From contig CBDCGX010000014.1 of assembly GCA_965216965.1 (NCBI GenBank), forward strand, positions 29,445 to 93,444: DNA of 64,000 bases, in the 5' to 3' direction. This DNA is from Spirochaetia bacterium (GTDB lineage: Bacteria; Spirochaetota; Spirochaetia; WTKD01; G963693115). Under the pieces are notes generated by a model, which saw only the letters and a list, made by a program, of their open reading frames with translations, ran no database searches and was not told the DNA's origin. The position numbers were made by a program, and so were the translations under genes. Position 1 is the stretch's first letter, and every line of letters starts with the position of its first letter. This document shows positions 1,156 to 64,000 of this stretch, one piece after another.

Positions 1156-1206
1156 AGCACTTGCTTGACATGCAAGAGGTCTCCGGTTCAAGTCCGGTAT
1201 CGCCTA
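1133..1206 (+). tRNA. tRNA-Val (anticodon GAC)
   Basis: Hand-folded cloverleaf. Acceptor AGGCGAT (1133-1139) pairs with ATCGCCT (1199-1205) and the discriminator is A1206. D-stem is GCTC/GAGC with the AGTTGGTTA loop. Anticodon stem is CTTGC/GCAAG with loop TTGACAT, giving anticodon GAC at 1167-1169. Variable loop is 5 nt. T-arm is (T)CCGG-TTCAAGT-CCGG(T). No encoded CCA. Confidence 0.85.
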
Positions 1207-1406
1207 CACGTTTTATCTTTAATATCTAACCTAAATCTTATTTAGTAAAAAATATTTTTAAACTATATTTAGCCTAAACCCATGCTAGTATTTGGTTTTC
1301 CTACTAAATAACACTGCTGTTTTCTATTAAAGGGTTACAATTCTGCATATTATATTTTATAATATCAAGATTATATTATAATAAATAAAATTATATTTCA
1401 AAAAAC

Positions 1407-14486: not shown

Positions 14487-16221
14487 ATGTGTATCTTACA
14501 CGGAATGTCCGTATCTAAAGGAATTGCTATAGCTCCTGCCTATGTATTTCTTTCCGATACGACCATGATGGTTCCTCGTTATTATGTAGAAAACTATAAT
14601 ATAAAACAAGAAATACTACGTTTAGAAAATGCAATGGAAGAAGTGAGAACCGATATTTATAAAACATATGAAAACCAAAATAACAAAGTAGCAAAAAACA
14701 TTTTAGAAACACATACATTTATACTTGAAGATAATGAACTCATAGAAAAAATCACTCGTACCATAGAAAAAGAATATTTTAATGCAGAATGGGCCGTAAG
14801 AATTATTACTAAAGAATACATGCATAAATTTGCTATTATGGAAGATGAATATTTCCAGCAAAGGACCCATGATGTAAATGATATAGCACTTCATATTATA
14901 AATAAATTAGGCAGTAATAATAAATGTGAAAAAAACAACCTAGATGCACCAAAAATAATTGTTGCTAATACGCTTCTTCCAATGCAATTTTTACGACTTC
15001 CAAGAAAAAATATTGCAGGGATAATATTAGAAAAAGGTGGAAAAACAACTCATGTAACCATAATAGCAAAAGCATTTAGTATCCCTATGATTATTAATGT
15101 AAAAAATATTAGCAAAATACTTCCTAAGCAAAATCTCATACTTGACGCAAACACTGGACAAATCATACTTAATGCAAATGAGCATACTATAAAAGTATTT
15201 GAAATTGAAGATGAAAAAAAGAAAAAAGAAAAATCTTCTCAAGAGGAGAAAGTTCAATCTTTAAAACATTGTACAAAAGGACAATCAAATTATGACTTTC
15301 CAAATTAATGTTGATATACTAGAAGAGCTTGATTGCCGTGCAATTGAATATACTGATGGTATAGGGCTGTTTAGAACAGAATTTATATTTCCTAATATTT
15401 CTCCCTTGCAAGATAGCGAAGAAGAACAATACACAGCCTATCTAAACATATTCAAATATATGAAAGGAAAACCTATTACTATCCGAACATTTGATTTTGG
15501 AGGAGAAAAAAAAACAACAAAAATACAAACATCAAAAGAAAACAATCCGCTTTTGGGAATAAGAGGAATACGATTTTACCATAAAGATAATCAAGAACTA
15601 TTTTTATCTCAATTGCGCGCACTTCTTCGAGCATCTTTTATTGGAAAGCTTAATATTCTTCTTCCCATGGTGTCTACTTTAGAAGAAATATATACAATCA
15701 AAGAATATTTAGAAGCCACAAAAGCAGAAATTTCTTCTCAGGGGATTTTAGGCACTCCCCAATATAAATTAGGAGTAATGATAGAAGTTCCCTCACTTTT
15801 ATATCAATTGAAAGAAGTATCACAAATTTGTGATTTTTGGTCTATAGGAACCAATGATCTCCTACAATACATAATGGCAACCGATAGGAGCAATAGTAAT
15901 GTAGAATATCTTTATTCCTATATGCAACCTGCTTTTTTAAGAGTCTTACAAAAAATATTCTACGAAGGATACAAGTATAAAACAGAAGTAATTATGTGTG
16001 GAGAAATGGCAAGTGATATATATTCAATACCTCTTTTATTGGGAGCAGGGTTAAGAAACTTTAGTGTTTCTCTTTCAAATCTTGCAGAAGTAATCAATAT
16101 CGCAACATCATACAATACCAAAGATACACGAGAGCTATTTGAACGTGCTGTTATGTGCAATTCTGTTAAAGCAGTCGAAAAAGAAGTAAAAGAATTTATA
16201 AACAACTTTAACGTACATTAA
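14487..16221 (+). pseudogene. ptsI: PTS enzyme I (phosphoenolpyruvate-protein phosphotransferase), split by a single-base frameshift near 15277-15282
   Basis: ORF 14487..15308 carries the N-terminal and His domains (GGKTTHVTIIAKAFSIPMI). ORF 15292..16221 carries the PEP-utiliser barrel (GIGLFRTEFIF, NDLLQYIMATDRSN, CGEMASD). Removing one base in ACAAAAGGACAAT restores ..HCTKDNQIMTFQINVD... All catalytic motifs are intact. Confidence 0.85.
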
Positions 16222-20585: not shown

Positions 20586-20782
20586 AGAAATATTTAAAAC
20601 TATAGCGGGAATATTCAATATAAATAAAAGAATCAATAATGTGTTTTTATTTTATATAAAAATAGTATTAATTTACGTTTTTAAAAAACATATTACTTTA
20701 GCAAATATAAAAAAAAACATATGTTTTTACATAATTAAATTTTTATAACAATTAATGATGTGTTTTTTTGGAGGAAATAAAT

Positions 20783-22987
20783 ATGATACATGAAGTGTCA
20801 ACTGAGATAGGTGGAAAAACACTTACATTGCAAACTGGAAGAGTGGCAAAACAAGCAAATGGTGCAATATTTGCTACATATGAAGGAGCGGCTGTTTTAG
20901 CAACCGTATGTTGTTCTTCTGCCACAAATGAAGATTTGGATTTTATTCCATTGCAAGTTGAATATAACGAGAAATATTATGCAGCAGGTAAAATACCCGG
21001 AGGCTTTTTAAAGAGAGAAGCTCGCCCTAAAGACAAAGAAATTCTTGTATCTCGTCTTATTGATAGGCCTATGAGACCTTTGTTTTATAAAAATTTCATG
21101 CGTGAAATCCAGCTTATCCCTACAACTATATCTACAGATCAAATTAATCCGCCCGACATAGTTGCAATGTGTGCGACATCAGCATGCGTTACAATCAGTG
21201 ACATCCCTTTTGATGGTCCAGTTGCTGCTGTACGAGTAGCACTCTGTGATGATGATTTCATTATTAACCCAACCTTTGAAGAAATAGAATGTTCACTATT
21301 AGAACTTATTATTTCTGGAACAACTCATGGTATTACTATGGTAGAAGGTGGTGCAAAAGAAATTTCAGAAGAGAAAATACTTGAAGCTATTTCTTTTGCT
21401 CATCCCGTTATATCACAACTATGTGATCTTCAAAATGAGCTCGCAAAAAAATGTGGAAAAGAAAAACTTCCTCTTGTTGAAGTTCCAGATTTTATTCTTG
21501 CCGACGAAATTAAAACCTTTGCACGTGAAAAAATGGAGAAAGCTTGCTATGTAAAAGGGAAGCATGAGCGCTCTCTTGCTATAAAAGCTGTTATAGAGGA
21601 AACATTCACACATTTTCAAGGTAAGGTAGAAGAAAATGCAGAAAAAAACATATATAGCTCTCTTGATGAACTTGAACAAGAAATTGTAAGAAAAAATATT
21701 ATTGAAAAGAAAGTACGAACAGACGGACGTGGACCTTCAGATATTAGAGATATTGATTGTGCCATTACAATTCTTCCTCGCACACATGGAACAGCACTCT
21801 TTACAAGAGGAGAAACCCAGGCACTTGCTACAGTTACTCTAGGCACTGCAAGTGATGAACAAATCCGTGATGATATAGATGGAGATAAAAAAGAACATTT
21901 TTTATTGCATTATAACTTTCCTCCTTATTCTGTAGGAGAGACAGGCCGTCTTTTTACTGGAAGGAGAGAGATAGGGCATGGCCATCTCGCATTCCGTGCA
22001 GTACAACCAATTCTTCCAGACAAAAGTGTGTTTTCTTATACAATACGAATTGTCTCAGAAATATTAGAGTCTAATGGATCATCTTCTATGGCGACAGTAT
22101 GTGCAAGCTCACTTTCTCTTATGGACTCTGGAGTGCCCATTAAAAATGCAGTTGCAGGTATTGCAATGGGTCTTATTGCAGAAGACGACAAAACAGTTGT
22201 GCTTTCTGACATTTTAGGAGAAGAAGATCATCTTGGTGATATGGATTTTAAAGTTGCTGGCACAAAAAATGGTATTACAGCGTTTCAAATGGATATCAAA
22301 ATAAAAAATGTAAGCACCGAAACTATGAAAGAAGCACTTGAACAAGCAAGAGAGGGCAGAATTCATATTTTACAAATAATGAATAAGACTATTGAAAATT
22401 CAAAAGAAAAACTTTCACAGTATGCACCGCGTGTTATTACTTTTGAAGTGGATCCAGAAAATATTGGGACTCTCATTGGCTCTGGAGGAAAAACAATTCG
22501 ATCTATATCTGAAAAATATGATGTTCAAGTTGATATTGCAGATAATGGGAAAATCACACTGTATTCAAAGAAAGCTGATGCGGCAATCCTTGCAAAGGAT
22601 GAATTCCTCCATCTTCTTGAAGAACCAGAAGTAGGAAAGATATATACAGGAGTAGTGAAACGTATTACCGATTTTGGAGCCTTTATAGAAGTACTTCCAG
22701 GTAAGGAAGGTTTATGCCATATAAGCAGAATCTCTACTGAGAGAGTACAAAATGTAAAAGATGTATTATCGCTTGAACAAGAAGTACAAGTAATAATAAT
22801 CGAAATAGATAGAATAGGAAGGATCAACCTTTCGATGAACCTCAATGCAAAAAGTGAAGATTCTTCTCAATCTTCTAGAGGCGGCCGTAATCATAGTCAT
22901 GATACAAGATCACATCGACCCTCTCATAGAAATTCTTTTCAGGATAAACGTAGACATTCTTCACAAAGGCACAACAGGCGTAGCTAG
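20783..22987 (+). CDS. pnp: Polyribonucleotide nucleotidyltransferase (PNPase) with an unusual basic C-terminal tail
   Basis: Two RNase PH domains, a KH domain and an S1 domain are recognisable (..LHYNFPPYSVGE.., ..GDMDFKVAGT.., ..GKIYTGVVKRITDFGAFIEV..). The ATG at 20783 is preferred because GGAGG lies 8 nt upstream; the tracked start at 20768 is TTG. Confidence 0.95.
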   Translation: MIHEVSTEIGGKTLTLQTGRVAKQANGAIFATYEGAAVLATVCCSSATNEDLDFIPLQVEYNEKYYAAGKIPGGFLKREARPKDKEILVSRLIDRPMRPLFYKNFMREIQLIPTTISTDQINPPDIVAMCATSACVTISDIPFDGPVAAVRVALCDDDFIINPTFEEIECSLLELIISGTTHGITMVEGGAKEISEEKILEAISFAHPVISQLCDLQNELAKKCGKEKLPLVEVPDFILADEIKTFAREKMEKACYVKGKHERSLAIKAVIEETFTHFQGKVEENAEKNIYSSLDELEQEIVRKNIIEKKVRTDGRGPSDIRDIDCAITILPRTHGTALFTRGETQALATVTLGTASDEQIRDDIDGDKKEHFLLHYNFPPYSVGETGRLFTGRREIGHGHLAFRAVQPILPDKSVFSYTIRIVSEILESNGSSSMATVCASSLSLMDSGVPIKNAVAGIAMGLIAEDDKTVVLSDILGEEDHLGDMDFKVAGTKNGITAFQMDIKIKNVSTETMKEALEQAREGRIHILQIMNKTIENSKEKLSQYAPRVITFEVDPENIGTLIGSGGKTIRSISEKYDVQVDIADNGKITLYSKKADAAILAKDEFLHLLEEPEVGKIYTGVVKRITDFGAFIEVLPGKEGLCHISRISTERVQNVKDVLSLEQEVQVIIIEIDRIGRINLSMNLNAKSEDSSQSSRGGRNHSHDTRSHRPSHRNSFQDKRRHSSQRHNRRS

Positions 22988-41665: not shown

Positions 41666-43768
41666 TTAAAGTTTTTTCTTTTTATTATAATTACTACCCA
41701 TAAACAATTCAATTACCTCAATTTCTTTTTTGCATTGTAATAATTGCTCTCTAAACTCCTCATGTTGAAGGAATGTATTAACCTGAGTAAGGATTCCTAA
41801 ATGAGGGTATTCTTTAGGAACAGCTATTAGCACGAAAATATGAGAAGGTTTTTTATCAAATGAATCAAAATCAACTCCTTCCTTCTTTAAGCCAATTACA
41901 ATCTTAGGTAGTTTGCAGGCTTGACTCCTCGCATGGGGAATAGCTATACCATATTGCATTCCTGTGGAAAATGTTTCTTCTCTCTCAAATATATCTTTCA
42001 ACAAAAGTTTTATATCACTTAAATAACCGCCCTTTGCGAGAAGACTCGCAAGTTCTTCTATAACCTTATTTTTTGAGTGAGCTTGTATTGACATATTAAC
42101 TAAAAAAGGTGAAATGAAATTTTCCAACGAAGCATCTTGCGAAGCATCTCTTTCAATTCCTAGTGTGTTTTTTGCAATTTGATTTACTCGCTCTTTTACT
42201 ATTTGAGCAGATTCTGCAATATCAGTGGCAGCTTCGTATAATGCAGTTTTAAAGAAAGGGATGCTTTGTTTATCAGAAAAAAATATCAACTTTCCTGTAT
42301 TAAAAGAATGAAGAGTAAAAAACATATTATCTTTTCTTATGTGATATATGTTTCTATCAGACTGACCAATTTTATTGGTAAGGAACCCTTCTTCTTCCAT
42401 CAGAATTAGAAAATCAGAAACTATAAATCGTGCAAGTTGCCAATGTTCAAAATCAATTTCAGTTTTTTCTGTGTTAGTCTTCTCAGGGTGATATGTTCCT
42501 TTTTTAGGTAAAGAAATCAATATATGGAGAAAGAATGGAGCTAACAACGCATTAATAATTACCATCATCATTACAGCATTATACAATGTGTTATTTATTA
42601 TTCCCGCAGAAAGACCTAAACTTCCAATAATGAGAGCAACTTCTCCTCGAGGTGCCATTCCTGTTCCAATGCGTGTAGCTCCAAGCACATTAAACCCAAG
42701 CCCCAAAGAGGGGAGTCCTGCCCCAAGAAACTTTGCAATCATGCACATTATGCTATAGCCCATACCTAATAAGAAAATTTCAGGTTTTAAAAACTCAAGA
42801 ACAGAAATCTGCATTCCACTTACAATAAAAAATATGGGAACAAATAATAAAAGAATAGGAGAAAGCTTTTCCTGTATTACATATGACAGATCAGTGTTAG
42901 AAATTGTAAGCCCTATAACGTAAGCTCCAATAATCATGGATAGCCCCCATGTTTCAAACAATGCCCCAAGAAAAAATGCCATTCCCAAAACAACTATAGA
43001 AATGCTTGTTATATCACCTATTGTCTTTTTAAGCCCTCGCCCTAACTTTCTTGCAAAAAGAATTCCTATGACTGTCGAACCTAACCATATACCCAAAGAC
43101 TTTATAGCGATAAAAAATATTTTTATCATGTCTGGTGCAGCTCCTACTTGTGTTTTCACATCGCTAATCCCTATTACTATAGCGAGAATAACAATTCCTA
43201 TAACATCATCAAATACTGCTGCCGAAAGAATAGTAACACCTTCAGGGCTACTTATTTTTCTTTTTGATGATAAAACACTTGTAGTAACTCCTACAGATGT
43301 CGCAGTAGCTATAGTTCCCATTAATAAATGAGATGGATGAAATGGCGGCAACCCAGGAAAAAATAGTGTGCTTATATAGTATCCCCCAAAGAATGAAGCT
43401 ATAACTCCTCCTAGACCAACAATAGTTCCCTTGAGTGCATATCGCATAAATAGGTTTACATCTGTTTCTAGCCCAGAATGGAATAACAACATTACAGAGG
43501 CTATTATAGAAAGGTCAAGAAGATTCCTAGAAACATTTATTCCTCCTTCAATGCCCTTAGGAAATATACCATGAGGGAAAAAAGAGGTAAAAGGGATGCC
43601 CCCTAAAACAAATGGACTTAAGAATACTCCTATAATAATATATCCAACAACACTAGGGATTGAAATTTTCTTTGATACCTTATCTACAAGGAATGCACAT
43701 ACTATTATGACAGATAGTTGAAATAACAATACAGTTGTTGAATAAAGTGCGTTGGTGCCTTCTTCCAT
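41666..43768 (-). CDS. Cation:proton antiporter (Na_H_Exchanger/CPA family) fused to an unassigned cytosolic module and a C-terminal PTS EIIA type-2 (Fru/Ntr) domain
   Basis: 700 aa. Residues ~1-425 are polytopic (..LLFHSGLETDVNL.., ..GAYVIGLTISNTD.., ..GMAPRGEVALII..). Residues ~550-700 carry the EIIA-2 pattern ..REETFSTGMQYGIAIPHARS...PSHIFVLIAVP.., with the phospho-acceptor at His612. Confidence 0.85.
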   Translation of the reverse strand: MEEGTNALYSTTVLLFQLSVIIVCAFLVDKVSKKISIPSVVGYIIIGVFLSPFVLGGIPFTSFFPHGIFPKGIEGGINVSRNLLDLSIIASVMLLFHSGLETDVNLFMRYALKGTIVGLGGVIASFFGGYYISTLFFPGLPPFHPSHLLMGTIATATSVGVTTSVLSSKRKISSPEGVTILSAAVFDDVIGIVILAIVIGISDVKTQVGAAPDMIKIFFIAIKSLGIWLGSTVIGILFARKLGRGLKKTIGDITSISIVVLGMAFFLGALFETWGLSMIIGAYVIGLTISNTDLSYVIQEKLSPILLLFVPIFFIVSGMQISVLEFLKPEIFLLGMGYSIMCMIAKFLGAGLPSLGLGFNVLGATRIGTGMAPRGEVALIIGSLGLSAGIINNTLYNAVMMMVIINALLAPFFLHILISLPKKGTYHPEKTNTEKTEIDFEHWQLARFIVSDFLILMEEEGFLTNKIGQSDRNIYHIRKDNMFFTLHSFNTGKLIFFSDKQSIPFFKTALYEAATDIAESAQIVKERVNQIAKNTLGIERDASQDASLENFISPFLVNMSIQAHSKNKVIEELASLLAKGGYLSDIKLLLKDIFEREETFSTGMQYGIAIPHARSQACKLPKIVIGLKKEGVDFDSFDKKPSHIFVLIAVPKEYPHLGILTQVNTFLQHEEFREQLLQCKKEIEVIELFMGSNYNKKKKL

Positions 43769-43846
43769 ATCTAAACTCCGATAACTATAATTTACATATA
43801 GTATAGCACCAATCTTAAGTCTATTTGGTGATTTTGTAATAGAAAA

Positions 43847-45944
43847 TTAGCTATATGAACAAAAAAGATCAACTACTGATGTTTCACTTGTACATGCAAG
43901 TAGTTTTTCTCTAAATATAGCATCATTTAAAAACTTAGTTACCTGTGAAAGGATGCCTAAATATGCAAAATCTTTAGGAATAGCAAATAAAATAAAAATA
44001 TTTGAAGGTTGTTTATCCATAGAATCAAAATCAATTCCTTCTTTTTTAATTCCAATTACTATTTTTGGTTCTTTACATGCAATACTTTTGGCATGGGGGA
44101 ATGCAACTCCTTTCTCAAGACCTGTAGAAAAAGTATTTTCTCTTTCCAAAATATCATTTAAAAAGACTTGCTTGTCATGCAAAAAACCCCCCTTATCAAT
44201 TAAATTGATAAGTTCTTCTATTACTTCTTTCTTAGTTTTTGACTTTATTTGTAAAAGAATTAAGAAAGGAGAAAGAACAGATTTTATATCAATTTTTTCT
44301 GGAGAAGAAACAAGGGGTAATGACACCTCTTGTTTCTTGATTGTTTTCTCATTAAATATTTTAATTTTTTTCTCCAATATATGGGCAGACGCTGTAATAT
44401 TCATTGCGGCTTCGTAGAGTGCAGTTTGAAAAAAGGGAACACTCTGTATATCAGAAAGAAAAACTATTTTTCCTTTAGAATGCACATGCATAGTAATAAA
44501 CATGGCATTTTTTCTAATGTGATAGATGTTTTTTTCTTTTGATCTAATCTTATTTATAAAAAAACTTTCTTCTTCCATCAACAATAAAAAATCATCTACA
44601 ATAAATCGAGTAAGTTTGGGGTCTTCTATATCTACTTCAACAGAATGGTCTTCACTTTTAATTGTTTTTTTAGTCCCCATTTTCTGAGATGTGTATAGTG
44701 TTTGAGCTACAATTGAGGTAACAAATGCACTGCTTATAATCATAAACATAATCGCACTATACAAAGAACTTGTTATAAAACCTGCCGATAGGGCAAAGCT
44801 TCCTACAATAAGCGAAACTTCCCCTCGTGATACCATTCCTATTCCTATACGTGTTGAACCAAGGCTATTAAAACCAAGAAAAAAAGAAGGAATAGCAGAT
44901 CCAATAAACTTTGTTATAATAGCAGCAAAACTAAGCAATATACCTAAGAAAAGCACAGAGGGGTTTAGAAATTCTGGTATGTTTACTTTCATTCCACTTA
45001 CAATAAAAAATATTGGTATAAAAAATTTAGAAATTGGAAACAGCTTTTCTTGTATAACATATGAAAGATCTGTATTAGAAATGGTAAGCCCCACAATGTA
45101 GGCACCCACTATTATAGACAACCCTAATATTTCAAAAACTCCCCCTATAATAAGTGTCATACCAAATACAAAAAGAGCCATGTGTATTGTGTTTTTTGTT
45201 GTTTTCTTAATCCAGTAACTTATTTTTCTTGAACAAACAATTCCAATAATAGTAGAACCAGCCCATAAAGCAATTGCTTTTATAGTAATAATAATTATTT
45301 TAACAGCACTAATAGAAGAAGACGCATCATTAGTATTATGCAGCTCAGAAACTCCTAGGACTATAGCAAACAATATAATGCTTATCACATCATCAAAAAT
45401 TGCAGCTGCAAGTGTAGTAACACCTTCTGGAGTACTCATCTTCTTTTTACTAGAGAGTACATTTGTAATAATCCCTATTGACGTTGCACTACTTGCCACG
45501 CCTACAAATAAATGAGTGCTATGAAACGCACTTAAGTCTGGAAAAATAAATTTACTTACAAGGTAGCCCCCTAAAAAATGAGACAGTAATTTCACTTATT
45601 CCTATGAGACTTCCTTTTATAGAATAACGAAGGAAGAGATTGACATCTGTTTCAAGCCCCGAATAAAAGAGTAGGGTAATTGCTGCTATATTTGAAAAAT
45701 ATTCTAAAACTTGAACATGCCCCCCTCCTGTGCCTTCGCCAAATAAACCATTTGAAAATATAGAACCAAGTGATATTGACCCTAGCATGAATGGACCTAT
45801 GATAATACCAAAAATGATATATCCTATAGTGCTTGGCATAGCAAGAAGTTTGCTTATTTTCTCTGCCATTAACCCACCAATTGTTACAACTCCTATTTGA
45901 ATTATAAGTTGAATAATAAGGTTTGTATTTTCAAAGGATCCCAT
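43847..45944 (-). pseudogene. Paralogous antiporter-EIIA fusion, interrupted by a single-base frameshift in a T-run near 45576-45581
   Basis: ORF 45552..45944 is the N-terminal 130 aa and ORF 43847..45595 is the rest. It has the same three-part architecture as the neighbour (..GLETDVNL.., ..GAYIVGLTISNTD.., ..RENTFSTGLEKGVAFPHAKS..). On the minus strand the break reads TCATTTTTTAGGGGGCTAC. Deleting one T gives ..SFLGGYLVS.., aligning with ..SFFGGYYIS.. in paralogue 1. Confidence 0.8.
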
Positions 45945-54049: not shown

Positions 54050-57000
54050 ATGAGACCTCATTCTAAAATCTTTACGGAACTTTATCTTAATGCCACTGAC
54101 TCATTACAAAGAAAACTCCCCTTAGACTCTCTCTCTTCTTTATTTATACAAAGTGCACATAGCAGTTATTTTCCATTATGGTGCGTTGCATTTCAAAATT
54201 ATATAAAAAAACCCCTTCTAATTGTAAGTCCATTTGATGAACATGCCATAGAGCTTGCTAATGATATTACAGCATGGAATTATACGTTACATCCTAATAA
54301 AACAGAAAGCATAGTCCCTTCTTTCCCATCGTGGGGAACTATTATGGGAAGACCTCTTTCATCATATGCGGAATCTCGTTATACAAGGGCAAAAATGCTA
54401 TATATAATGGCAGAACAGAAAAATACTACATCAATTGCCACATGTAGCATCCGATCATGGTACACCTTGCTTCCTCCTTCAGACATTATATATAAAAGAA
54501 GCATTTCTCTTAATGTTGGAGACGAGTGGCAATCTGATGTGCTTGCAGAACTTATAAGCTCATATAATTTTCTTCGTGTACCACAAATAAGTGGAATAGG
54601 AGAATTTTCCATTCGAGGAGAAATGTGCGATATTGCAATGTATAATTCTGTATACAGGATACATTTTGATTTTGACCATATAGAGAAAATAACCCAAATA
54701 GGAACAATAATACGAAACAATATTACATATGATTTTCAAAAAGAAACCTCTCCGCTTTCTACAATTACTATTCACCCACTCACAGAACATATATGGGATA
54801 CATATTCTTCCATAGATACACTTAAATCTCGACTTCCAGACATTCCTTCTTCCATTATAGAGAAAACCCAAACGCATATCAAAACCCACTCTTTTGATGA
54901 ATACGATTATATGTACTATCCATTTCTCTACAAGACATTTTCACATATTACAAAATATTTTTCGGATGCCCCCATTGTTCTCATGTGTAATTTTGAAGAT
55001 CTTAAAAAACAAGACACTCGTTATAAGGAAGAATATATAAAAGCTTTTTTAGATGAATCTCATATAAAATGCATTCCACGCCCAGAGCGAATGTGGGAAT
55101 TATGCGATACTATTTCGCAAAAAGCAATTCAAATACCTGTATTGCATAAAGAAATATATGACAATACAGACAATAAGAACCATCACCACATAATCGTAGG
55201 AGATAAAAAAGTAAGTGGGTTTAATGGAAACATACGTTACTTTGAGAAATATGTAGAAAAAAGGATACAAGACAATAATGAACATTATGCAATATTTGCT
55301 CCCAGTACTCAACAAAAAGAACGAATTGAAACTTTATGTAATGAATCACTTCTTAAAAACAATATGTTTTCCATTGAAATACTTGATATACATTCGGGAT
55401 TTTCTATACACACAAAATCAGGTTCATTTACTGTATATAACGAAAGCAATATTTTAGGAAAAAAACTTTTTTCATCATTGGACGAAAAAATAGAAGATAT
55501 AACAAATATAGATGCGATAGAAGAAAATACCATTGTAGTTCATATTCATCATGGAATAGGAATATTTAGGGGGCTTAAACGAGTTCCCATACATGGAAGC
55601 GAAAAAGATTTTATGCATATTGAATATGCCGATGGCGAATCTCTCTATGTCCCCATAGAACAAATCACTATGGTTCAGCGATATATTGGAAAAGAAAAAA
55701 ACAAAGTAAGACTTGATACAATAGGGGGGGGGACATGGAAAAAGAAAAAAAATAAGGTGCTAAAGCATGTAGAAGATCTCTCAAAAGACTTGTTAGAAAT
55801 ACAGGCAGAACGAAATAATCTTATCGGATTTGCATATTCTAAAGAAACAGAATGGGAAAAAAAATTCATACAGAATTTTCAATTTACAGAAACAAATGAC
55901 CAAATACATGCATGGAAAGAAATAGCATCAGACATGGAAAGTGCACAAGTAATGGATAGACTCGTTGTTGGAGATGTAGGGTTTGGAAAAACCGAACTCG
56001 CTATGCGTGCCATATTTAAAGCAATAGTATCAGGAAAACAAGCATTGTTTTTAGTGCCTACAACTATACTTGCAGAGCAGCATTATAATGTAACGCTAAC
56101 ACGATTTGAAGATTTCCCTGTGAAAATAGGAATACTTTCTCGTCTTATAGACAAAAAAACACAAAAGAATACAATAGAATTATTAAAAACAGGAGAAATT
56201 GATTTGCTCATTGGAACCCATCGTGGAATACAAAACGACATATCTTTTTATGATTTAGGGCTTATTATCATAGACGAAGAGCATAAATTTGGAGTAAAAG
56301 ACAAAGAAAGAATAAAACACCTTAAAAGAAGCGTAGATTGCCTCGCACTGAGTGCAACTCCAATACCTAGAACTCTCTATCAATCACTTGTAAATATACG
56401 AAGCATATCAACGCTTACAACTCCTCCTAAAATACGAAAACCAATTAAAACATTTGTAGAAAAATATGATGAAAAAATCATACAAAGTGCAATAATAAAA
56501 GAACTTGACAGAAAAGGACAGGTGTTTTTTCTTCACAATAGAGTACAATCACTTGAAGAAATAAAAGAATACATCACGCGATTAGTACCAAGAGCAACCG
56601 TGCTAACTGCAAGCGGAAAAATGCCTCCCGCACAACTTGAAAACACCATGCATCGTTTTATACATGGTGGTGCAAATGTATTGGTATCAACAACCATCAT
56701 AGAAAACGGAATTGATATTCCCTCCGTCAATACAATAATCATAGATAGAGCAGATATGTATGGTGTTTCCCAACTCTACCAACTAAGAGGAAGAGTAGGG
56801 CGAAGCGACAAAACTGCCTATGCCTATTTGTTATATCCCGATGAAAATAGAATATCAGAAATAGCCCTTAGAAGACTTACAACAATAAGTGATCATAGCG
56901 AACTTGGCTCAGGATTTCATATTGCAATGCAAGACCTTGAAATACGAGGTGCAGGAAATCTTTTGGGAAAAGAACAAAGCGGAGGCATTTATTCAATAGG

Positions 57001-57508
57001 ATATGAATACTACTTACAACTTTTAGATAAAGCCATTAAAAAAGCATCGGGAATAAAAATACAAGATAGCAATCCTCTTATAGAAATAGAATATAGGGGC
57101 TATATTCCTAATAAATATATTCCTGATATGGGCATAAAAATGAGTATATATAAAAAAATACTGCGAATACGAAGTATTGAAGAATATAAGCAAGTAAAAG
57201 AATATCTTACAAACACGTTTGGACCAATTCCCAACGAAATATATACCCTCATGCATATTGCAAAGATAAAAATACTTATGGGAATGCTATGTATACAAAA
57301 ACTTAGCACAAAAAAAGACATATTTGAATTGTATTTCAGTTCCAATACACAAAAAGAAAACATTCAAACAAAAATATCTTTACTTATAAAGAGGAAAATC
57401 TTTCAATTTCATAAAAAATACTCTCATATATTGATATTTGAATATAAAAGTTTTGACACTGCTCTAAAATCTTTAGAAGAACATCTTTTATATATCCTCA
57501 AAGAATAA
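54050..57508 (+). CDS. mfd: Transcription-repair coupling factor Mfd
   Basis: 1152 aa with superfamily-2 helicase motifs (GDVGFGKTE, IIDEEHKFGV, LSATPIPRTL, ..QLRGRVGRS..) and a UvrB-like N-terminus. Confidence 0.95.
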   Translation: MRPHSKIFTELYLNATDSLQRKLPLDSLSSLFIQSAHSSYFPLWCVAFQNYIKKPLLIVSPFDEHAIELANDITAWNYTLHPNKTESIVPSFPSWGTIMGRPLSSYAESRYTRAKMLYIMAEQKNTTSIATCSIRSWYTLLPPSDIIYKRSISLNVGDEWQSDVLAELISSYNFLRVPQISGIGEFSIRGEMCDIAMYNSVYRIHFDFDHIEKITQIGTIIRNNITYDFQKETSPLSTITIHPLTEHIWDTYSSIDTLKSRLPDIPSSIIEKTQTHIKTHSFDEYDYMYYPFLYKTFSHITKYFSDAPIVLMCNFEDLKKQDTRYKEEYIKAFLDESHIKCIPRPERMWELCDTISQKAIQIPVLHKEIYDNTDNKNHHHIIVGDKKVSGFNGNIRYFEKYVEKRIQDNNEHYAIFAPSTQQKERIETLCNESLLKNNMFSIEILDIHSGFSIHTKSGSFTVYNESNILGKKLFSSLDEKIEDITNIDAIEENTIVVHIHHGIGIFRGLKRVPIHGSEKDFMHIEYADGESLYVPIEQITMVQRYIGKEKNKVRLDTIGGGTWKKKKNKVLKHVEDLSKDLLEIQAERNNLIGFAYSKETEWEKKFIQNFQFTETNDQIHAWKEIASDMESAQVMDRLVVGDVGFGKTELAMRAIFKAIVSGKQALFLVPTTILAEQHYNVTLTRFEDFPVKIGILSRLIDKKTQKNTIELLKTGEIDLLIGTHRGIQNDISFYDLGLIIIDEEHKFGVKDKERIKHLKRSVDCLALSATPIPRTLYQSLVNIRSISTLTTPPKIRKPIKTFVEKYDEKIIQSAIIKELDRKGQVFFLHNRVQSLEEIKEYITRLVPRATVLTASGKMPPAQLENTMHRFIHGGANVLVSTTIIENGIDIPSVNTIIIDRADMYGVSQLYQLRGRVGRSDKTAYAYLLYPDENRISEIALRRLTTISDHSELGSGFHIAMQDLEIRGAGNLLGKEQSGGIYSIGYEYYLQLLDKAIKKASGIKIQDSNPLIEIEYRGYIPNKYIPDMGIKMSIYKKILRIRSIEEYKQVKEYLTNTFGPIPNEIYTLMHIAKIKILMGMLCIQKLSTKKDIFELYFSSNTQKENIQTKISLLIKRKIFQFHKKYSHILIFEYKSFDTALKSLEEHLLYILKE

Positions 57509-57529: not shown

Positions 57530-58072
57530 ATGAAAATAATAAAAATTAGAAAAGAAGACACTATAGTAGATCACTATCTACATCAAACGGCTTATTACAA
57601 CACCATAAAAGCTACAATATGCCAGCCTCTTTCTATACGAAGAAATATAGATTGCCGCTCATTGTTTCCTAATAAAAGTTTTGTAAGAGTACATAAAAGA
57701 GTCAATAAAAGACAAAAGAAATGGTTTGAAAAAGGGTTTCCTCTCTATGGATTGCATTACGATTCATGTGAAAATATTGAAACTATGCTTTCTCACAGAA
57801 ATATTGCATATAAACACATATGTTTTGACATAGGCTTTGGAAAAGGAGAAACAATTTTCCAAATGGCATTAGATTCTCCTGACACCTTGTTTATAGGAGT
57901 AGAACCTTACAAAAAGGGGATAGAATCGTTATTATCGAAAATAATGCAGAATAACGTCAAAAATATTCTTATATTTCATTATGATGTAGTTCCTATATTG
58001 CTACATATGGTTCCAGATTGCACTCTTGATAGAATACAAATATTTTTCCCTGATCCGTGGCAAAAAAAACGT
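57530..58072 (+). CDS. trmB: tRNA (guanine-N7)-methyltransferase TrmB, 3'-truncated at the sequence join
   Basis: ..ICFDIGFGKGETIFQMALDSPDTLFIGVEPY... and ..IQIFFPDPWQKKR match TrmB. The family normally continues H-x-K-R-R plus ~60 aa. Here homology stops and the ORF ends after nine unrelated codons (at 58099). Confidence 0.8.
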
Positions 58073-58085
58073 CTGAGCACTTTAT
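58060..58085. other. Breakpoint between a spirochaete-like and a Campylobacterota-like sequence (probable chimeric join)
   Basis: Both flanking genes are truncated at this point. Local GC jumps from 27% (57961-58020) to 43% (58141-58200), both hand counts. An A8 run at 58062-58069 sits at the join. Confidence 0.75.
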
Positions 58086-58311
58086 GGAAACATTTGTAGA
58101 AAATCCTCAGTCTCAACTTCCTGGTACTTCTATGCCTAGAGTTGGGTTAAGTGCTGAAGGGTATGAGCATGTCAAAGCATATCTTGAAGAAGTGGGTGAT
58201 CCAAGTAAACCTAAAAGAGAAGCAGTAGGTCCATGGGTTCTTGGGTTCTTCATTATCTTTACGATACTAGCGTTCTTATGGAAAAAAGAACAATGGAGAG
58301 ATTTACACTAA
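58075..58311 (+). CDS. C-terminal fragment of a membrane-anchored c-type cytochrome (PetC / cytochrome c1-like of the Campylobacterota bc1 complex); 5' part missing
   Basis: ..FMETFVENPQSQLPGTSMPRVGL... carries the PGT.MP Met-ligand motif and is followed by a C-terminal TM anchor (VGPWVLGFFIIFTILAFLWKK). There is no start codon, RBS or haem-binding CxxCH part upstream. The PetC assignment is from memory. Confidence 0.5.
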   Translation, partial: EHFMETFVENPQSQLPGTSMPRVGLSAEGYEHVKAYLEEVGDPSKPKREAVGPWVLGFFIIFTILAFLWKKEQWRDLH

Positions 58312-58338
58312 ATCTTTTGCGGTATTTTGCCGCATCTT

Positions 58339-58384
58339 CGAAGGAGTTTGCTCAGTCACGTGACTTTGAGTGTACGCTCCTTCG
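58339..58384 (+). terminator. Nested hairpin after the cytochrome fragment (possible terminator or structured element)
   Basis: Outer stem is CGAAGGAG (58339-58346) / CTCCTTCG (58377-58384). It encloses CTCAGTCACGTGACTTTGAG, which has the perfect 12-nt palindrome AGTCACGTGACT (58354-58365). There is no clear T-tract. Confidence 0.35.
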
Positions 58385-58532
58385 CAACAACCTTCAAATC
58401 TACAACAAACTACACACAAAATATTCAGCTTAAATAATATACTTACGTTCTAACTTATTATCTTTTATCCCCCTTTTATCTACATTTAGATACCCTAATA
58501 AAAATATATAAAAATTATACATTGGATTTCAT

Positions 58533-59513
58533 ATGCTTATAGATGGACATGGTCGCGAAGTTAATTATCTTCGTATATCAGTAACAGAACGTTGTAACTT
58601 TAGATGTCAGTATTGTATGCCTGAAAAACCTTTCTCTTGGGTACCCAAAGAGAACCTCCTTTCTTTTGAAGAGCTTTTTTTATTTGTAAAAGTAGCCATA
58701 GATGGTGGTGTCACTAAGATACGTCTTACAGGTGGTGAACCACTTTTAAGAGAAGACCTTGATACATTTATTAAGATGATTAATGAGTATAAATCAGGAT
58801 TAGATTTAGCACTTACTACCAATGCCTTTTTACTCCCAGAAGCAGCACAAAGACTTAAAGATGCTGGACTTAAACGTCTTAACATTTCGCTTGATTCTAT
58901 GAAGGCAGATGTTGCTGCCAAGATTGCAGGAAAAGATGTGCTTGGGGAAAGTATTTGAAGGTATAGACAAAGCTTTAGAAGTAGGCTTAAAAGTAAAAAT
59001 CAACATGGTGCCACTTAAAGGTATTAATGATGATGAGATTTTAGATGTGATGGCGTACTGTGAAAAAAATAATATGAAAGTACGTTTCATAGAGTATATG
59101 GAAAATGCCCATGCGGACCAAGCGCTTAAAAGGGATGCATGGTAGAGAGATACTTGAAAAAGTAAAAGAAAAATATACCATTAAGGCATTAGGTCGTGAG
59201 GGTGCTAGTCCATCGTTTAATTATCTCATAGAAGAGACAGGGTATGAGTTTGGACTTATAGACCCACATAAACATGATTTTTGTGAAAACTGTAACCGTA
59301 TAAGACTTACCGCGGAAGGAAATCTTATTCCTTGTCTCTATTTTGATGAAGCATATAAGTATTGCAGAATCAGTAAAAAAAGGTGATATTCAAGGTGCTG
59401 CGGATGTGCTAGCTAAAGTACTGAAAGACAAACCCAAAGAAAATCGTTGGTCAGAAGATGAACTTGAAGATAGAGAGATCTCTACACGTGCTTTTTATGA
59501 GACTGGTGGCTAA
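58533..59513 (+). pseudogene. moaA: GTP 3',8-cyclase MoaA (radical SAM) with three single-base frameshifts
   Basis: Homology runs through four frames: [30 protein letters not shown]...AGKDVLG | [31 protein letters not shown]...HADQALK | [11 protein letters not shown]...[25 protein letters not shown] | ..[18 protein letters not shown]...ETGG*. The shifts are at a GGGG run (~58949), an AAAA run (~59132) and ~59355-59362. Confidence 0.85.
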
Positions 59514-60271
59514 TGTTTTATCTGACGGAACAATTCTTCTCTATTCAAGGTGAGGGTAAATACGCAGGGGTGCCTTCTTACTTTTTGCGTACAGGCGGCT
59601 GTAATTTAAACTGTCCTGGTTTTGGGGCAGAGTATGAAGTAGATGGAGAAATTCGTTTAGGATGTGATACTTATTTTGCTGTAGATTCTGCTTTTGCAAA
59701 GTCTTGGATAAAAGCAGATAATGCCTCCATACTTATCGATACACTTTCAAAAGAATTTTTGGAGATTGGGTATAACCCTCATATGGTGATTACTGGGGGA
59801 GAACCTCTTATGTACCATACGGACAGTAACTTTTATGAAGTGGTAGCGTGGTTAGTCTCAGAAGGTATAGAGATTACTTTTGAGACCAATGGGACTGTCG
59901 AGATAGATTTTGAAAAGTACCCAGCTTATAAATCTTGTATCTTTGTACTCTCTTTAAAACTCAAAAACTCTGGGGAACCGGAAGTAAAACGTATTATTCC
60001 TCAAGCACTCATTAATGTACAAGCACATGCAAAAGAAGCTTTTTTAAAATTTACAATAGATGCAGAGTTGGTGAATACCACTGCTTTGGATGAAATTAAT
60101 GAGATTAGAGACATTTTACCAGAGCTAGAGGTGTATTGTATGCCTGTAGGTGAGAGTAGAGATACCATTTGGAAAAATGATAGAGCTGTTTTTGAGTTTT
60201 GTATGCAGCATAACTTTCGCTATAGCGACCGCTTACATATTAGAGTTTTTGACACCACCCAAGGGGTGTAG
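59513..60271 (+). CDS. queE: 7-carboxy-7-deazaguanine synthase QueE (radical SAM)
   Basis: ..[33 protein letters not shown].. and ..VITGGEPLM.. fit QueE. Its ATG overlaps the moaA stop (TAATG). Confidence 0.85.
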
Positions 60272-60277
60272 TGCCAT

Positions 60278-60484
60278 TTAATTGGGTGTCACATTAATGC
60301 CAGGACTATCTGGCGTACCAATATAGTCACTGACTGTTTCATGGGTCATTTTAATATAACTCAGTACCCCTGCAAAAAGTACTAACCCTACAATAACCAA
60401 ACGTATGATTTTACGTTTTTGAGTAGATTCTTGATTGTTATAGTCATCAATATAGTCCATGGTTGGTTCATTTTCTAATTTCAC
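60278..60484 (-). CDS. Small single-TM protein (68 aa), last gene of the cyd cluster
   Basis: Its GTG start overlaps the TGA of the preceding 53-aa ORF (GTGA). It has one TM helix (IIRLVIVGLVLFAGVLSYI). I recognise no motif. Confidence 0.45.
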   Translation of the reverse strand: MKLENEPTMDYIDDYNNQESTQKRKIIRLVIVGLVLFAGVLSYIKMTHETVSDYIGTPDSPGINVTPN

Positions 60485-60642
60485 TTTTTATCCTTTTGTT
60501 GTAATGTTTGATGGTTTTTTTCATAGATTTCCAGTCGTTCAAGTTTGTTAAAATGTTGTAAATTATGTTGTACAAATTTTACAGATATCCAAACTGTGAT
60601 AGGTAAAGATATGTACCAAATTATTTCTCCTAAGTATTCCAT
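60481..60642 (-). CDS. Unlisted small single-TM protein (53 aa) immediately after cydB; candidate accessory subunit of cytochrome bd (CydX-like position)
   Basis: It is not in the ORF track because it is under 60 aa. My translation is MEYLGEIIWYISLPITVWISVKFVQHNLQHFNKLERLEIYEKNHQTLQQKDKK*. AGGAGA lies 6 nt upstream of the ATG and overlaps the cydB stop codon (TTAGGAGATACAATG). Confidence 0.5.
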   Translation of the reverse strand: MEYLGEIIWYISLPITVWISVKFVQHNLQHFNKLERLEIYEKNHQTLQQKDKK

Positions 60643-60650
60643 TGTATCTC

Positions 60651-61781
60651 CTAATAATGATGTGAGTCAGACTTGACTTCTTCGATAGTCATTTTGTTTT
60701 TGTCCATAGAACGCCAAACTAAAAATATGTAGCCAAGTACCACAGGAATAAGTAGTGAGACTATGGACATGACTGACAATGTATAGTGGCTTCCTGAACT
60801 GTTTTCTATGGTAAGTGAACTTTGTAGGTCGACCAAAGAAGGGTAATAGGCAGAATGGTTAAATCCTAAAATAAAGAGTAGCACGGTTACGGCCAAGACA
60901 GTACCTGTACCAGAGAACCAAATGGCTTTATGGTTGTGTTTGTAAAGCGCACTGTAAATACCATAGAGTAAAGTTCCTATACCCAAAAGTAGTATGATGA
61001 GTAAGAGCGGATAGTCCAAAAGAGTATGTAAAAATTTCATAGGTTCTATAAAAACCATTTGTGTCTCTGGGGTATAGCTATACCCTTGTTGAAATAATAT
61101 AAAGCCAAACACAAAAAGAAAAAAAGGTAAAAATATCAAAGTGTTGTTTTTTAATGTTCTCATGATACGTTTTGCTATGGCTTCATTGTCCAGATTGTTG
61201 TAAAAATAAAGCGATGCTTGAATACGTGAAAGAAAGATAAGCATCACACCAAAAGAGACATTAAAAGGGTTGAGTAGTGCTTCGAGTCCATAGCTTGCCT
61301 TTGTCCAGTGTGAAAGATGCATTTCATTTACCACAAAGTTCCCCCCTGTATAAAGTGTTGCAAGCGCAACGCCCAATAAAAATACACCTAAAGAGCCGTT
61401 GATAAAGAGGAGCTTTTCGTAAAATCTCTCTCCAAAAACGTTGTCTGGTTTTTTACGGTACTCATAGGAGACAGCTTGAATAATGAAACAAAAAAGAATG
61501 GCCATCCATACATAATATGCGCCACCAAAACTTACAGCATAAAAAAGTGGAAAAGCCGCAAAGAGTGCACCACCGAACATAACCAAGGTACTGAAGGTCA
61601 GTTCCCACTTTCGTCCCAATGAATTGATGATGAGTGTACGTTCATCATCGGTTTTTCCCAGTGTATAAAGGAGGGTTTGTCCTCCTTGTACAAAAGTCAT
61701 AAAGACAAAAAGTGCGCCCAACAGACTTACAATAAGCCAGCAATAGGTTTGTAGTGTCAACAACGAAATAGAATCTAACAT
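60651..61781 (-). CDS. cydB: Cytochrome bd-type quinol oxidase subunit II
   Basis: A 376-aa polytopic protein with a CydB-like N-terminus (..WLIVSLLGALFVFMTFVQGGQTL..). Its ATG directly follows the cydA TAA. Confidence 0.9.
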   Translation of the reverse strand: MLDSISLLTLQTYCWLIVSLLGALFVFMTFVQGGQTLLYTLGKTDDERTLIINSLGRKWELTFSTLVMFGGALFAAFPLFYAVSFGGAYYVWMAILFCFIIQAVSYEYRKKPDNVFGERFYEKLLFINGSLGVFLLGVALATLYTGGNFVVNEMHLSHWTKASYGLEALLNPFNVSFGVMLIFLSRIQASLYFYNNLDNEAIAKRIMRTLKNNTLIFLPFFLFVFGFILFQQGYSYTPETQMVFIEPMKFLHTLLDYPLLLIILLLGIGTLLYGIYSALYKHNHKAIWFSGTGTVLAVTVLLFILGFNHSAYYPSLVDLQSSLTIENSSGSHYTLSVMSIVSLLIPVVLGYIFLVWRSMDKNKMTIEEVKSDSHHY

Positions 61782-63314
61782 TTAATGTTCCCCCTCTGGT
61801 CCAATTTTAATTTGTTTAAGCATGATTTTTATTTCAGCGATAAGCAGTCCTGTAAAAAGTATGGCAAAGAGCCAAAAGGTAATCATGACAGAGGTTGAGG
61901 CTACATTGGATGCTGCCATACCTACAGGTAGAAGATCTTGTATCGCCCAAGGTTGGCGACCTGCTTCAGCTACTATCCATCCAGCCTCTTGTGCGACATA
62001 TCCTAAAGGGATAGTAAAGAGTGCTGCACGAAGTACCCATTTTTTGTGTTCAATTTCGTTAATCATGGCAAAGTAGAGCACGATAATAAATAAAATCAAA
62101 AACCATGTACCTAAACCTACCATCGTATGAAAACTGTAAAAAGAGAGTGCTACATTGGGTACAGCATCTTCAGGCTTTTTTAAATATCCATAGCCCATAT
62201 AAGATTGGTTTTCTTCAAAGGTTTTTAATGCCTGTTGTGCTTTTTTCTGATTGCCTTCTCTTTTAGCCTCTTTGTAGTCTTTCAGTGCTGATACAGCCTT
62301 TTTACCTAGAATCATTTTATCTTTCACAGACATAATATCTTGTTCTTCATTGCCATAAAGTATATCTTCTATCCCTGGGACAAAAGCCGATAAAGAGTGA
62401 TACCCTAAAAAAGAAAGGGCATTAGGGATTTCTACTTTAAAATGAAAAGCCTCTTTATCGTCACCCAAGGTTTTTTCATTGTTTAGAAGACCAATAGCGA
62501 TAATACCTGCTCTTGACTCTCCTTGGTAAAGACCCTCCATAGCTGCGAGTTTCATAGGTTGTTGTTGAGCCACTTGAAAGGCAGATTCATCTCCTGAGTT
62601 AAGTAGAAAAAGGGAAGAAATAAGCCCAAATGAAGCAGCCACTATCATACTGCGTTTTGCAAACATGATATCACGCTTTTTAAGTAGATACCATGCACTA
62701 ATACCTATAACAAACAAAGAAGCTAAGACGTACCCACTACTGACAGTATGTAGAAATTTACTGACTGCGTTAGGGTTAAAAATAACTTCTGCAAAGTTCT
62801 CCATCTCATTTCTTGCCGTATCTGGATTGAAGTGCATACCTACAGGGTGCTGCATCCACCCATTGGCAATGAGTATCCATAAGGCAGAGAGGTTAGAACC
62901 AATCGCCACAAGCCATGTAGAGAGCAAGTGCATTTTTTTGCTTACTTTATCCCATCCGAAAAACATTACAGCAAAAAATGTTGACTCCATAAAAAATGCC
63001 ATGAGACCTTCAATAGCAAGGGGCGCACCAAATATATCTCCCACTATCCATGAATAGTTTGACCAGTTGGTTCCAAACTCAAATTCCATAATAATCCCAG
63101 TGGCTAACCCTATGGCAAAGTTAATTGCAAGGAGAGTCATCCAAAATTGTGTGGTTTTTTTCCACCAAATATCACCTGTTTTGACATAGATGGTCTCCAT
63201 GATAGCGATAATAAAGGTCAAGCCTAAAGTGAGTGGTACAAAGAGCCAATGATACAGAGCAGTCAAGGCAAATTGTGCGCGAGACCAGTCTATCAGTAAA
63301 TCGGTATGTTCCAT
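61782..63314 (-). CDS. cydA: Cytochrome bd-type quinol oxidase subunit I
   Basis: 510 aa. ..LSRAQFALTALYHWLFVPLTLGL.., ..GAPLAIEGLMAFFMESTF.. and ..GWIVAEAGRQPW.. are CydA hallmarks. Confidence 0.93.
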   Translation of the reverse strand: MEHTDLLIDWSRAQFALTALYHWLFVPLTLGLTFIIAIMETIYVKTGDIWWKKTTQFWMTLLAINFAIGLATGIIMEFEFGTNWSNYSWIVGDIFGAPLAIEGLMAFFMESTFFAVMFFGWDKVSKKMHLLSTWLVAIGSNLSALWILIANGWMQHPVGMHFNPDTARNEMENFAEVIFNPNAVSKFLHTVSSGYVLASLFVIGISAWYLLKKRDIMFAKRSMIVAASFGLISSLFLLNSGDESAFQVAQQQPMKLAAMEGLYQGESRAGIIAIGLLNNEKTLGDDKEAFHFKVEIPNALSFLGYHSLSAFVPGIEDILYGNEEQDIMSVKDKMILGKKAVSALKDYKEAKREGNQKKAQQALKTFEENQSYMGYGYLKKPEDAVPNVALSFYSFHTMVGLGTWFLILFIIVLYFAMINEIEHKKWVLRAALFTIPLGYVAQEAGWIVAEAGRQPWAIQDLLPVGMAASNVASTSVMITFWLFAILFTGLLIAEIKIMLKQIKIGPEGEH

Positions 63315-63530
63315 TTATTGTTCCTTTTTTGTTAATTGTTCTAAGATGTAATGACTTCTTTGTGCATCATTTTGAAAATGTGTTTCTAAATAATTTGGAA
63401 AGAAAAACCATTTCATCACAGCAAAGAGTATAAAAAGCTTGATGGCTATCAGTAACCACAAACGCTTGCCTAATTTCATACTTTTAAAGCCTTCAAAGTA
63501 GAAATTATAAATCTTTTTAAGATGATGCAT
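63315..63530 (-). CDS. DUF4492-like small membrane protein preceding cydA
   Basis: MHHLKKIYNFYFEGFKSMKLGKRLWLLIAIKLFILFAVMKWFFFPNYL.. matches my recollection of the DUF4492 family found upstream of cydAB. The ATG at 63530 is preferred because AAGGAA lies 4 nt upstream; the tracked start is 63581. Its stop abuts the cydA ATG. Confidence 0.6.
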   Translation of the reverse strand: MHHLKKIYNFYFEGFKSMKLGKRLWLLIAIKLFILFAVMKWFFFPNYLETHFQNDAQRSHYILEQLTKKEQ

Positions 63531-63546
63531 TATATTCCTTATTTTG

Positions 63547-63586
63547 GACATATGACATGAATATATCACTTTTTTGGTCATATGTC
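63547..63586. promoter_or_regulatory. 10-bp inverted repeat GACATATGAC-N20-GTCATATGTC in the divergent cyd/DUF134 promoter region
   Basis: The arms are at 63547-63556 and 63577-63586 and are exact reverse complements. Each contains the CATATG palindrome. Confidence 0.45.
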
Positions 63587-63618
63587 AAGTATTTTAAAAA
63601 TTATGGTATACTTTTCTT

Positions 63619-64000
63619 ATGGGACGTGATAAATTAAAACGAAAATTACAATTTAAACCGATGTGTACCTCTTTTGGTTCTCTTGGTTGTCAAAGTGAAG
63701 ATACTATCTATCTATTACATGAAGAGATGGAAGCACTTTATCTTATGGACAATCAAGGACTTTATCAAGCAGAGGCTGCTGCACAAATGGAAGTGTCACG
63801 TACAACGTTTGCACGTATTATTAAAAGTGCAAGAGAAAAGGTAAGTATGATGCTCATTACGGGTGCCAACCTTACCATAGAAGATGAAAAAGATGAATAT
63901 ACGGTGATGTTAACAAGCATGAAAGAGGATGTTTTAGCACTTGGAAAACCAGATGCACCTTTTTTAATGGTATACCGTATACATCAAAATGAAATTGTCG
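63619..64000 (+). CDS. DUF134 (UPF0251) family putative DNA-binding protein; 3' end beyond the window
   Basis: It is not in the track because there is no stop within the window. My translation is MGRDKLKRKLQFKPMCTSFG...IYLLHEEMEALYLMDNQGLYQAEAAAQMEVSRTTFARIIKSAREKV... This fits the DUF134 pattern (basic N-terminus, F-K-P, then a sigma70-region-4-like HTH). Confidence 0.7.
   Translation, partial: MGRDKLKRKLQFKPMCTSFGSLGCQSEDTIYLLHEEMEALYLMDNQGLYQAEAAAQMEVSRTTFARIIKSAREKVSMMLITGANLTIEDEKDEYTVMLTSMKEDVLALGKPDAPFLMVYRIHQNEIV

Follow-up and report, generated by a model that had tools for sequence, protein, structure and literature searches.

In the window, as we call the whole stretch of 64,000 nucleotides analysed here, a trmB gene that has lost its 3' part runs directly into the 3' end of a petC gene. 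The features from the last intact gene to the left of this junction to the end of the window are the following:

54050-57508, forward strand: mfd, transcription-repair coupling factor, 1152 aa (TIGR00580, 950 bits), the last intact gene on the spirochaete side
57530-58072, forward strand: 5' part of trmB, 181 codons ending in FFPDPWQKKR (partial matches to PF02390 and TIGR00091)
58062-58069, forward strand: A8 run, read from the sequence, inside the trmB codons for Q-K-K; the breakpoint lies elsewhere
58072-58073, no strand: breakpoint; up to 2 nt (TC) can be assigned both to the last of trmB and to the first DNA homologous to petC
58072-58311, forward strand: final 79 codons and stop of petC, the gene for the dihaem cytochrome c1 of the bc1 complex
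58073-58099, forward strand: tail of the fusion ORF, LSTLWKHL and a stop, which is petC DNA read out of frame in the frame of trmB
58533-59513, forward strand: moaA (GTP 3',8-cyclase), with three +1 insertions at about 58940, 59128 and 59353; its fragments match TIGR02666 in order
59513-60271, forward strand: queE, 7-carboxy-7-deazaguanine synthase, 252 aa, intact (NCBIfam QueE matches below cut-offs)
60278-60642, reverse strand: two small ORFs of 68 aa and 53 aa downstream of cydB, conserved, with no Pfam match
60651-63314, reverse strand: cydB (60651-61781; PF02322, 230 bits) and cydA (61782-63314; PF01654, 556 bits), cytochrome bd oxidase, intact
63315-63581, reverse strand: DUF4492 small protein, upstream of cydA (PF14899, E 5e-27)
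63619-64000, forward strand: 5' part of a DUF134-family gene, an open frame that begins with MGRDKLKRK and continues past the window end

Judged by its genes and their closest matches, the sequence up to 58,072 is that of a spirochaete, as the initial annotation had proposed. The window opens within flaA, the 3' part of which (1-573; PF04620, E 6e-21) is in a frame open from the first base and is cut by the window start. It continues through further core genes (nusA, infB, truB, rny, der, pnp, dut, lptFG, murJ, gltB and mfd) and a gene for an AcrB-type pump. When PNPase (20768-22987) was searched with tblastn against 185,579 species genomes, the top matches were all spirochaetal (Spirochaetaceae, Spirochaetia and Spirochaeta, 58-67% identity), while other phyla ranked below them with at most 53% identity. 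No close relative of this spirochaete is present in the collections searched, where identity reaches at most 44% for TrmB and at most 45% for Mfd (the latter in JGI metagenomes).

Several genes on the left side are broken. The gene for PTS enzyme I, ptsI, is divided between two overlapping ORFs (14487-15308 and 15292-16221) by a +1 shift near 15292-15308, the first piece holding the N-terminal and mobile domains and the second the PEP-binding domain. Two tandem paralogues on the reverse strand (41666-45944) encode a Na+/H+ exchanger domain (NhaP) fused to PTS EIIA-2, and the second copy (43847-45944) has a +1-type frameshift near 45552-45595, a stretch that contains C5 and A6 runs. Between 2313 and 3466, ArsR-like HTH remnants precede a merA-like FAD/pyridine-nucleotide disulfide reductase with a GGGAG FAD motif and an end in SCC, whose pieces are spread over all three reading frames, the frame changing many times. 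This patch is either a genuinely decayed gene or a region of poor consensus, and it is possible that gene decay in the spirochaete is genuine.

To the right of the junction the DNA becomes collinear with Campylobacterota contigs. It aligns as a single block from 58072 to 63998 with two of them (L083, 86.3% identity; L094, 86.1%) and from 58077 to 64000 with a third (L088, 89.7%). Two more are closer still: L086 (JGI 3300028490) shares 97.9% identity with no gaps over 3,983 bp (60018-64000) and L087 (ENA ERZ27262695) 97.6% over 3,438 bp, the window-like stretch being flanked in both by Campylobacterota genes. In L083, L084, L088 and L094 the gene order is (mnmG)-hypothetical-petA-petB-petC-moaA-queE-68/69 aa-53 aa-cydB-cydA-DUF4492-DUF134. 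Upstream, the contigs of the relatives extend into an intact petC, petB, petA and mnmG, and what the right part of the window keeps of the petABC operon is the final 79 codons of its last gene. The same length and position of queE recur in these four contigs, genes of 68-69 aa and 53 aa stand at the same place in all six loci that extend this far (L083, L084, L085, L086, L088 and L094), and PF02001 genes occupy the DUF134 position in L083, L084, L086 and L088. The two small ORFs may encode small accessory subunits of the bd oxidase.

The proteins give the same picture. Cytochrome c1 of Campylobacterota (Sulfurovum and Nitratifractor) matches the petC fragment at 71-81% identity. CydA is 94-99% identical to proteins named as Epsilonproteobacteria or Campylobacterota, one of these at 95%. 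It reaches 99.0% with P0189, 97% with P0069 and P0070, and 80-82% with the proteins of Sulfurovum and Sulfurimonas. The initial annotation had recognised Campylobacterota-like MoaA, QueE, DUF4492-cydAB and DUF134 on this side, and all of them are found downstream of the junction. On this homology and collinearity, the right side is a random slice from the chromosome of a Sulfurovum-like Campylobacterota.

Some features of this locus are of interest in themselves. Compared with L083 and L088, queE shows a dS of 1.2-1.6 and a dN of 0.09-0.13, while dS is 0.2-0.8 in the flanking moaA and cydAB, a divergence that suggests allele replacement by recombination among Campylobacterota populations. The spacer between petC and moaA (58343-58383) holds an inverted repeat, GAAGGAG...CTCCTTC around a GTCACGTGAC palindrome, which is partly kept in L088 and may act as a terminator or regulatory hairpin. 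Over 10.4 kb, L083 and L094 (ENA MEGAHIT ERZ27262639 and JGI 3300026521) are 99.8% identical and come either from one Campylobacterota population or from samples that were assembled twice. A further Campylobacterota contig with the petABC-moaA-queE order, L001 (ENA ERZ25039461 contig_146576, 131.8 kb), is about 77-78% identical to the right side; almost all of its genes are fragmented (petA, petB, petC, moaA and queE), so that it resembles an unpolished long-read assembly. One paper (PMC8549365) cites a Ga0256843 scaffold as containing DNA from Ca. Endoriftia persephone, a symbiont of tubeworms, which suggests a hydrothermal-vent origin for the Ga0256843 sample, the source of L088.

The gene content of both sides bears on who the host might be. 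It is highly improbable that the roles are reversed, with 58 kb or more of spirochaete DNA in a Campylobacterota cell, or that both parts belong to a shared mobile or mosaic replicon. The occurrence of both sides on one deposited contig is all that speaks for either version. Against them, the left 58 kb consist of core chromosome genes (flaA, nusA, infB, truB, pnp, mfd and others), and the right side of core respiratory and cofactor genes in the order seen in five Campylobacterota contigs without plasmid or phage genes. Plasmid, phage and conjugation genes were seen on neither side.

The change of lineage is accompanied by a change of composition. Mean GC rises from 31.7% on the left to 36.8% on the right, a value that is higher than in all left windows of equal size (maximum 34.8%) and that matches the Campylobacterota contigs (35.2-37.8%). 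We compared the tetranucleotide profiles of the two sides, a check that had been proposed with the initial annotation, and obtained a correlation of 0.54 between right and left, against 0.66-0.89 among chunks of the left side. We also scored the window with two 4-mer Markov models. One was trained on the left side and the other on the Campylobacterota loci, from which only stretches without homology to the window were used. Left windows (115) give -26.6 +/- 9.7 and right windows (10) give +28.1 +/- 4.1. The score remains spirochaete-like along the full length of mfd, flips sign between 57.5 and 58.5 kb and then holds. Only one of the 115 left windows is positive, and weakly so (11501-12500 in rny, +7.2). 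The switch of lineage and composition is well beyond chance. The shift that had been described at first is confirmed, but its size, given as 27% versus 43% GC from sampled lines, was overstated.

Both genes that meet at the junction are interrupted inside conserved regions, with no functional boundary at the cut. The trmB ORF, including its read-through tail, spans 57530-58099. The Methyltransf_4 profile (PF02390) matches it from position 3 to 88 of 173 and stops at residue 181, and TIGR00091 matches at positions 16-103 of 194. Five TrmB homologues go on at this point with HHKRR and 87-89 residues more, whereas the window continues with LSTLWKHL and a stop. The 79 residues of the petC fragment align to residues 237-315 of 315 or 253-331 of 331 in full homologues and keep the C-terminal membrane anchor, with neither a start codon nor a CxxCH motif; in the full-length PetC of 315 aa the two CxxCH motifs are located at residues 84 and 178, both upstream of the part retained here. 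The two truncations reported earlier, of trmB after FFPDPWQKKR and of a c-type cytochrome that begins mid-protein past its haem-binding part, are thus both upheld.

The spirochaete TrmB carries an N-terminal extension of about 90 residues (57530-57800), and its nearest homologues, at 41-44% identity, are named gammaproteobacterial. One TrmB relative (L002) was rejected as a spirochaete on its genomic context, which includes genes for type II secretion and ankyrin repeats. The search for an intact trmB locus in relatives of the spirochaete gave none, the closest TrmB being those at 41-44% identity.

The sequence and the blastn alignments place the breakpoint at 58072-58073. The aligned blocks start at 58072 for L083 and L094 and at 58077 for L088. 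Native petC reads GCACGT followed by TCTGAGCAC, and the window reads AAAAACG followed by TCTGAGCAC; with longer context, CGTGCACGT TCTGAGCAC in native petC stands against CAAAAAAAACG TCTGAGCAC in the window. The last codon homologous to trmB is CGT (58070-58072). Because the next native codon is His (CAY) in all homologues, trmB could also cover 58073, which leaves an ambiguity of at most 2 nt (TC). The initial annotation had placed the boundary at the A8 run. The run does exist at 58062-58069, but it is wholly part of trmB, and the breakpoint at 58072 lies 3 nt beyond its end.

The breakpoint is seamless, with neither adaptor nor N spacer, and its microhomology of at most 2 nt is equally compatible with chance, recombination and chimeric templates. 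Since no more than these 2 nt are common to both sides, collapse of a shared repeat or k-mer was ruled out as the origin of the join. The absence of mobile-element scars that had been noted before holds for all the elements that we looked for. No direct or inverted repeats of note flank the junction. The only tRNA in the window (1133-1207) is 57 kb away. No integrase was found at the junction, where the neighbours are mfd, trmB, petC, moaA and queE according to Pfam and NCBIfam/TIGR profile matches. This boundary shows no sign of integration into a tRNA gene or att site flanked by direct repeats, the second boundary being located beyond the window.

In the collections searched, the junction is on record once. 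A single contig of 103,286 bp (NCBI and ENA) is the only record of the fusion ORF and of Mfd, QueE, CydB and CydA. The junction pattern, with the A run allowed to vary from 6 to 10 bases, occurs neither in the 185,579 GTDB species genomes nor among the JGI metagenome contigs, a result of low power on the spirochaete side, which has no close relative in those collections.

A seamless join with so little microhomology may also be read as the trace of a real and very recent transfer, in which at least 5.9 kb of a Sulfurovum-like chromosome entered the spirochaete by illegitimate, microhomology-mediated recombination. The integration would have destroyed trmB, moaA, which in the window has none of the Moco pathway near it, would have begun to decay, and cydAB may have been kept for oxygen tolerance. 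We regard this reading as unlikely. Joins of 0-2 nt do arise by illegitimate recombination in cells, which counts against an artefact. The transferred stretch, however, would have to fall within the within-species variation of Campylobacterota from other samples, with which it shares 98% gapless identity and GC. As the same population occurs elsewhere at 97.6-97.9% identity (L086 and L087), any true transfer would be essentially contemporary. The absence of mobile-element machinery and the restriction of the junction to one contig also speak against it.

The frameshifts in moaA are informative in this respect. In the window the gene is split over four ORFs. L083 and L088 have it intact (325 aa), and compared with them the window has three additional single bases, which jointly restore the frame. 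We removed the insertions and measured the substitutions in the rest of the gene. The dN/dS ratio is 0.027-0.034, compared with 0.043 in the control pair of L083 and L088, and the 16:100 nonsynonymous to synonymous differences represent no excess over the control (8.2:43.8). An old pseudogene, as expected after long residence in the spirochaete, is rejected by this dN/dS, a measure that is blind to inactivation within the last 1% or so of divergence. Given the low dN/dS and the missing nonsynonymous excess, the substitution pattern marks the lesions as consensus errors or extremely recent mutations rather than old ones. It also suggests that moaA represents a poor consensus rather than a decayed gene. 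A real transfer would require three separate frameshifts, every one of them extremely recent. All three are insertions, while pseudogene decay in bacteria usually favours deletions, and only one of them (the second, at about 59128) lengthens a homopolymer.

The lesions are also clustered. The affected gene is located 0.5-1.4 kb from the join, its neighbours queE and cydAB are intact, and from 60018 to 64000 there is not a single indel relative to the 98% identical L086. The errors would thus be confined to 1.3 kb beside the join, which would fit a region of poor read support. The same lack of indels past 60018 indicates that the assembly is not uniformly error-prone, and uniform errors would be expected to cluster less than the three insertions do, for which we estimate a chance of about (0.18)^3 = 0.006. 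Both points count against an artefact. The density of frame changes on the right compared with the left, taken as a proxy for lower coverage, is suggestive at most, as the left side also has the merA-like cluster.

Other aspects of the broken genes speak for a real transfer. The sole broken gene on the right is moaA, plausibly useless alone, while cydAB and queE are intact, and the recipient genome already carries broken genes. With ptsI, the NhaP-EIIA gene and the merA-like gene all broken on the left, the cut trmB and the frameshifted moaA could belong to one decaying genome. In addition, all five of the frameshifts that could be typed, two on the left and three in moaA, go in the same direction (a +1 insertion or a -2 deletion), which could reflect one mutational process. 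The most far-reaching reading is that a host-associated, gene-decaying spirochaete has freshly captured, by illegitimate recombination, at least 5.9 kb of DNA with a cytochrome bd oxidase from a vent Campylobacterota living alongside it, and has been caught before compositional drift with moaA already breaking down. We find this joint scenario quite unlikely.

The explanation that we favour is that the trmB/petC junction is a chimeric join produced during assembly and not by biology. The sequence evidence makes this likely, in agreement with the preference for an artefact over horizontal transfer in the initial annotation: the right part keeps the GC, the gene order and the near-identity of Campylobacterota found in other samples, mobile-element scars are absent and the junction is confined to one contig. 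The 103-kb contig would combine two organisms of one sample, a low-GC spirochaete with several broken genes and a Sulfurovum-like Campylobacterota. The middle of the spirochaete trmB would have been joined at 58,072-58,073 to a point in petC 79 codons before its end, either by the assembler or during DNA preparation. The cause might be a chimeric template or read, formed through ligation, amplification template-switching or a long read of two molecules, or else two contig ends might have been joined end-to-end. We infer that no cell holds such a molecule.

If the join is an artefact, its relevance is one of data hygiene. The 103-kb contig would be worth flagging and splitting at 58,072, because the contig and any bin with it would wrongly give the spirochaete a cytochrome bd oxidase, MoaA, QueE and a truncated TrmB, and estimates of inter-phylum gene transfer would be inflated. 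If it is real, the passage of chromosomal DNA from one phylum to another, with no mobile element involved, would have been caught almost as it happened, which is rare. It would then be of interest for the evolution of symbiont genomes, although the mechanism would not be new.

Among known systems, genomic islands inserted by integrases at tRNA genes also place a block of foreign composition beside native chromosome. The window differs from them in having no integrase, no tRNA/att repeat and no inverted repeats, and in a cargo of housekeeping respiratory and cofactor genes in their native order. Horizontal transfer by illegitimate recombination shares with the window a seamless junction, the 0-2 nt of which are equally compatible with chance and with chimeric templates, the lack of a site-specific recombinase and the interruption of a recipient gene. 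Unlike in such transfers, the fragment in the window is no functional unit and begins inside the last gene of an operon, and it shows neither divergence from the donor nor a shift towards the composition of the recipient; moreover, one junction is visible in the window, where the Campylobacterota-like DNA continues to the end, and a second genome with it was not found. Chimeras that arise in assembly graphs usually form at shared repeats, such as rRNA and tRNA genes, insertion sequences or conserved genes. The two sides of the window share at most 2 nt, a difference that points instead to two contigs joined at their ends, or to a read or template that was itself chimeric. The closest likeness is with the inter-genome chimeric contigs of metagenome, single-cell and contaminated assemblies, in which lineage and composition also switch abruptly at one base, genes are cut on both sides, the junction is unique to one assembly and an organism in other environmental samples has almost the same sequence as the foreign part.
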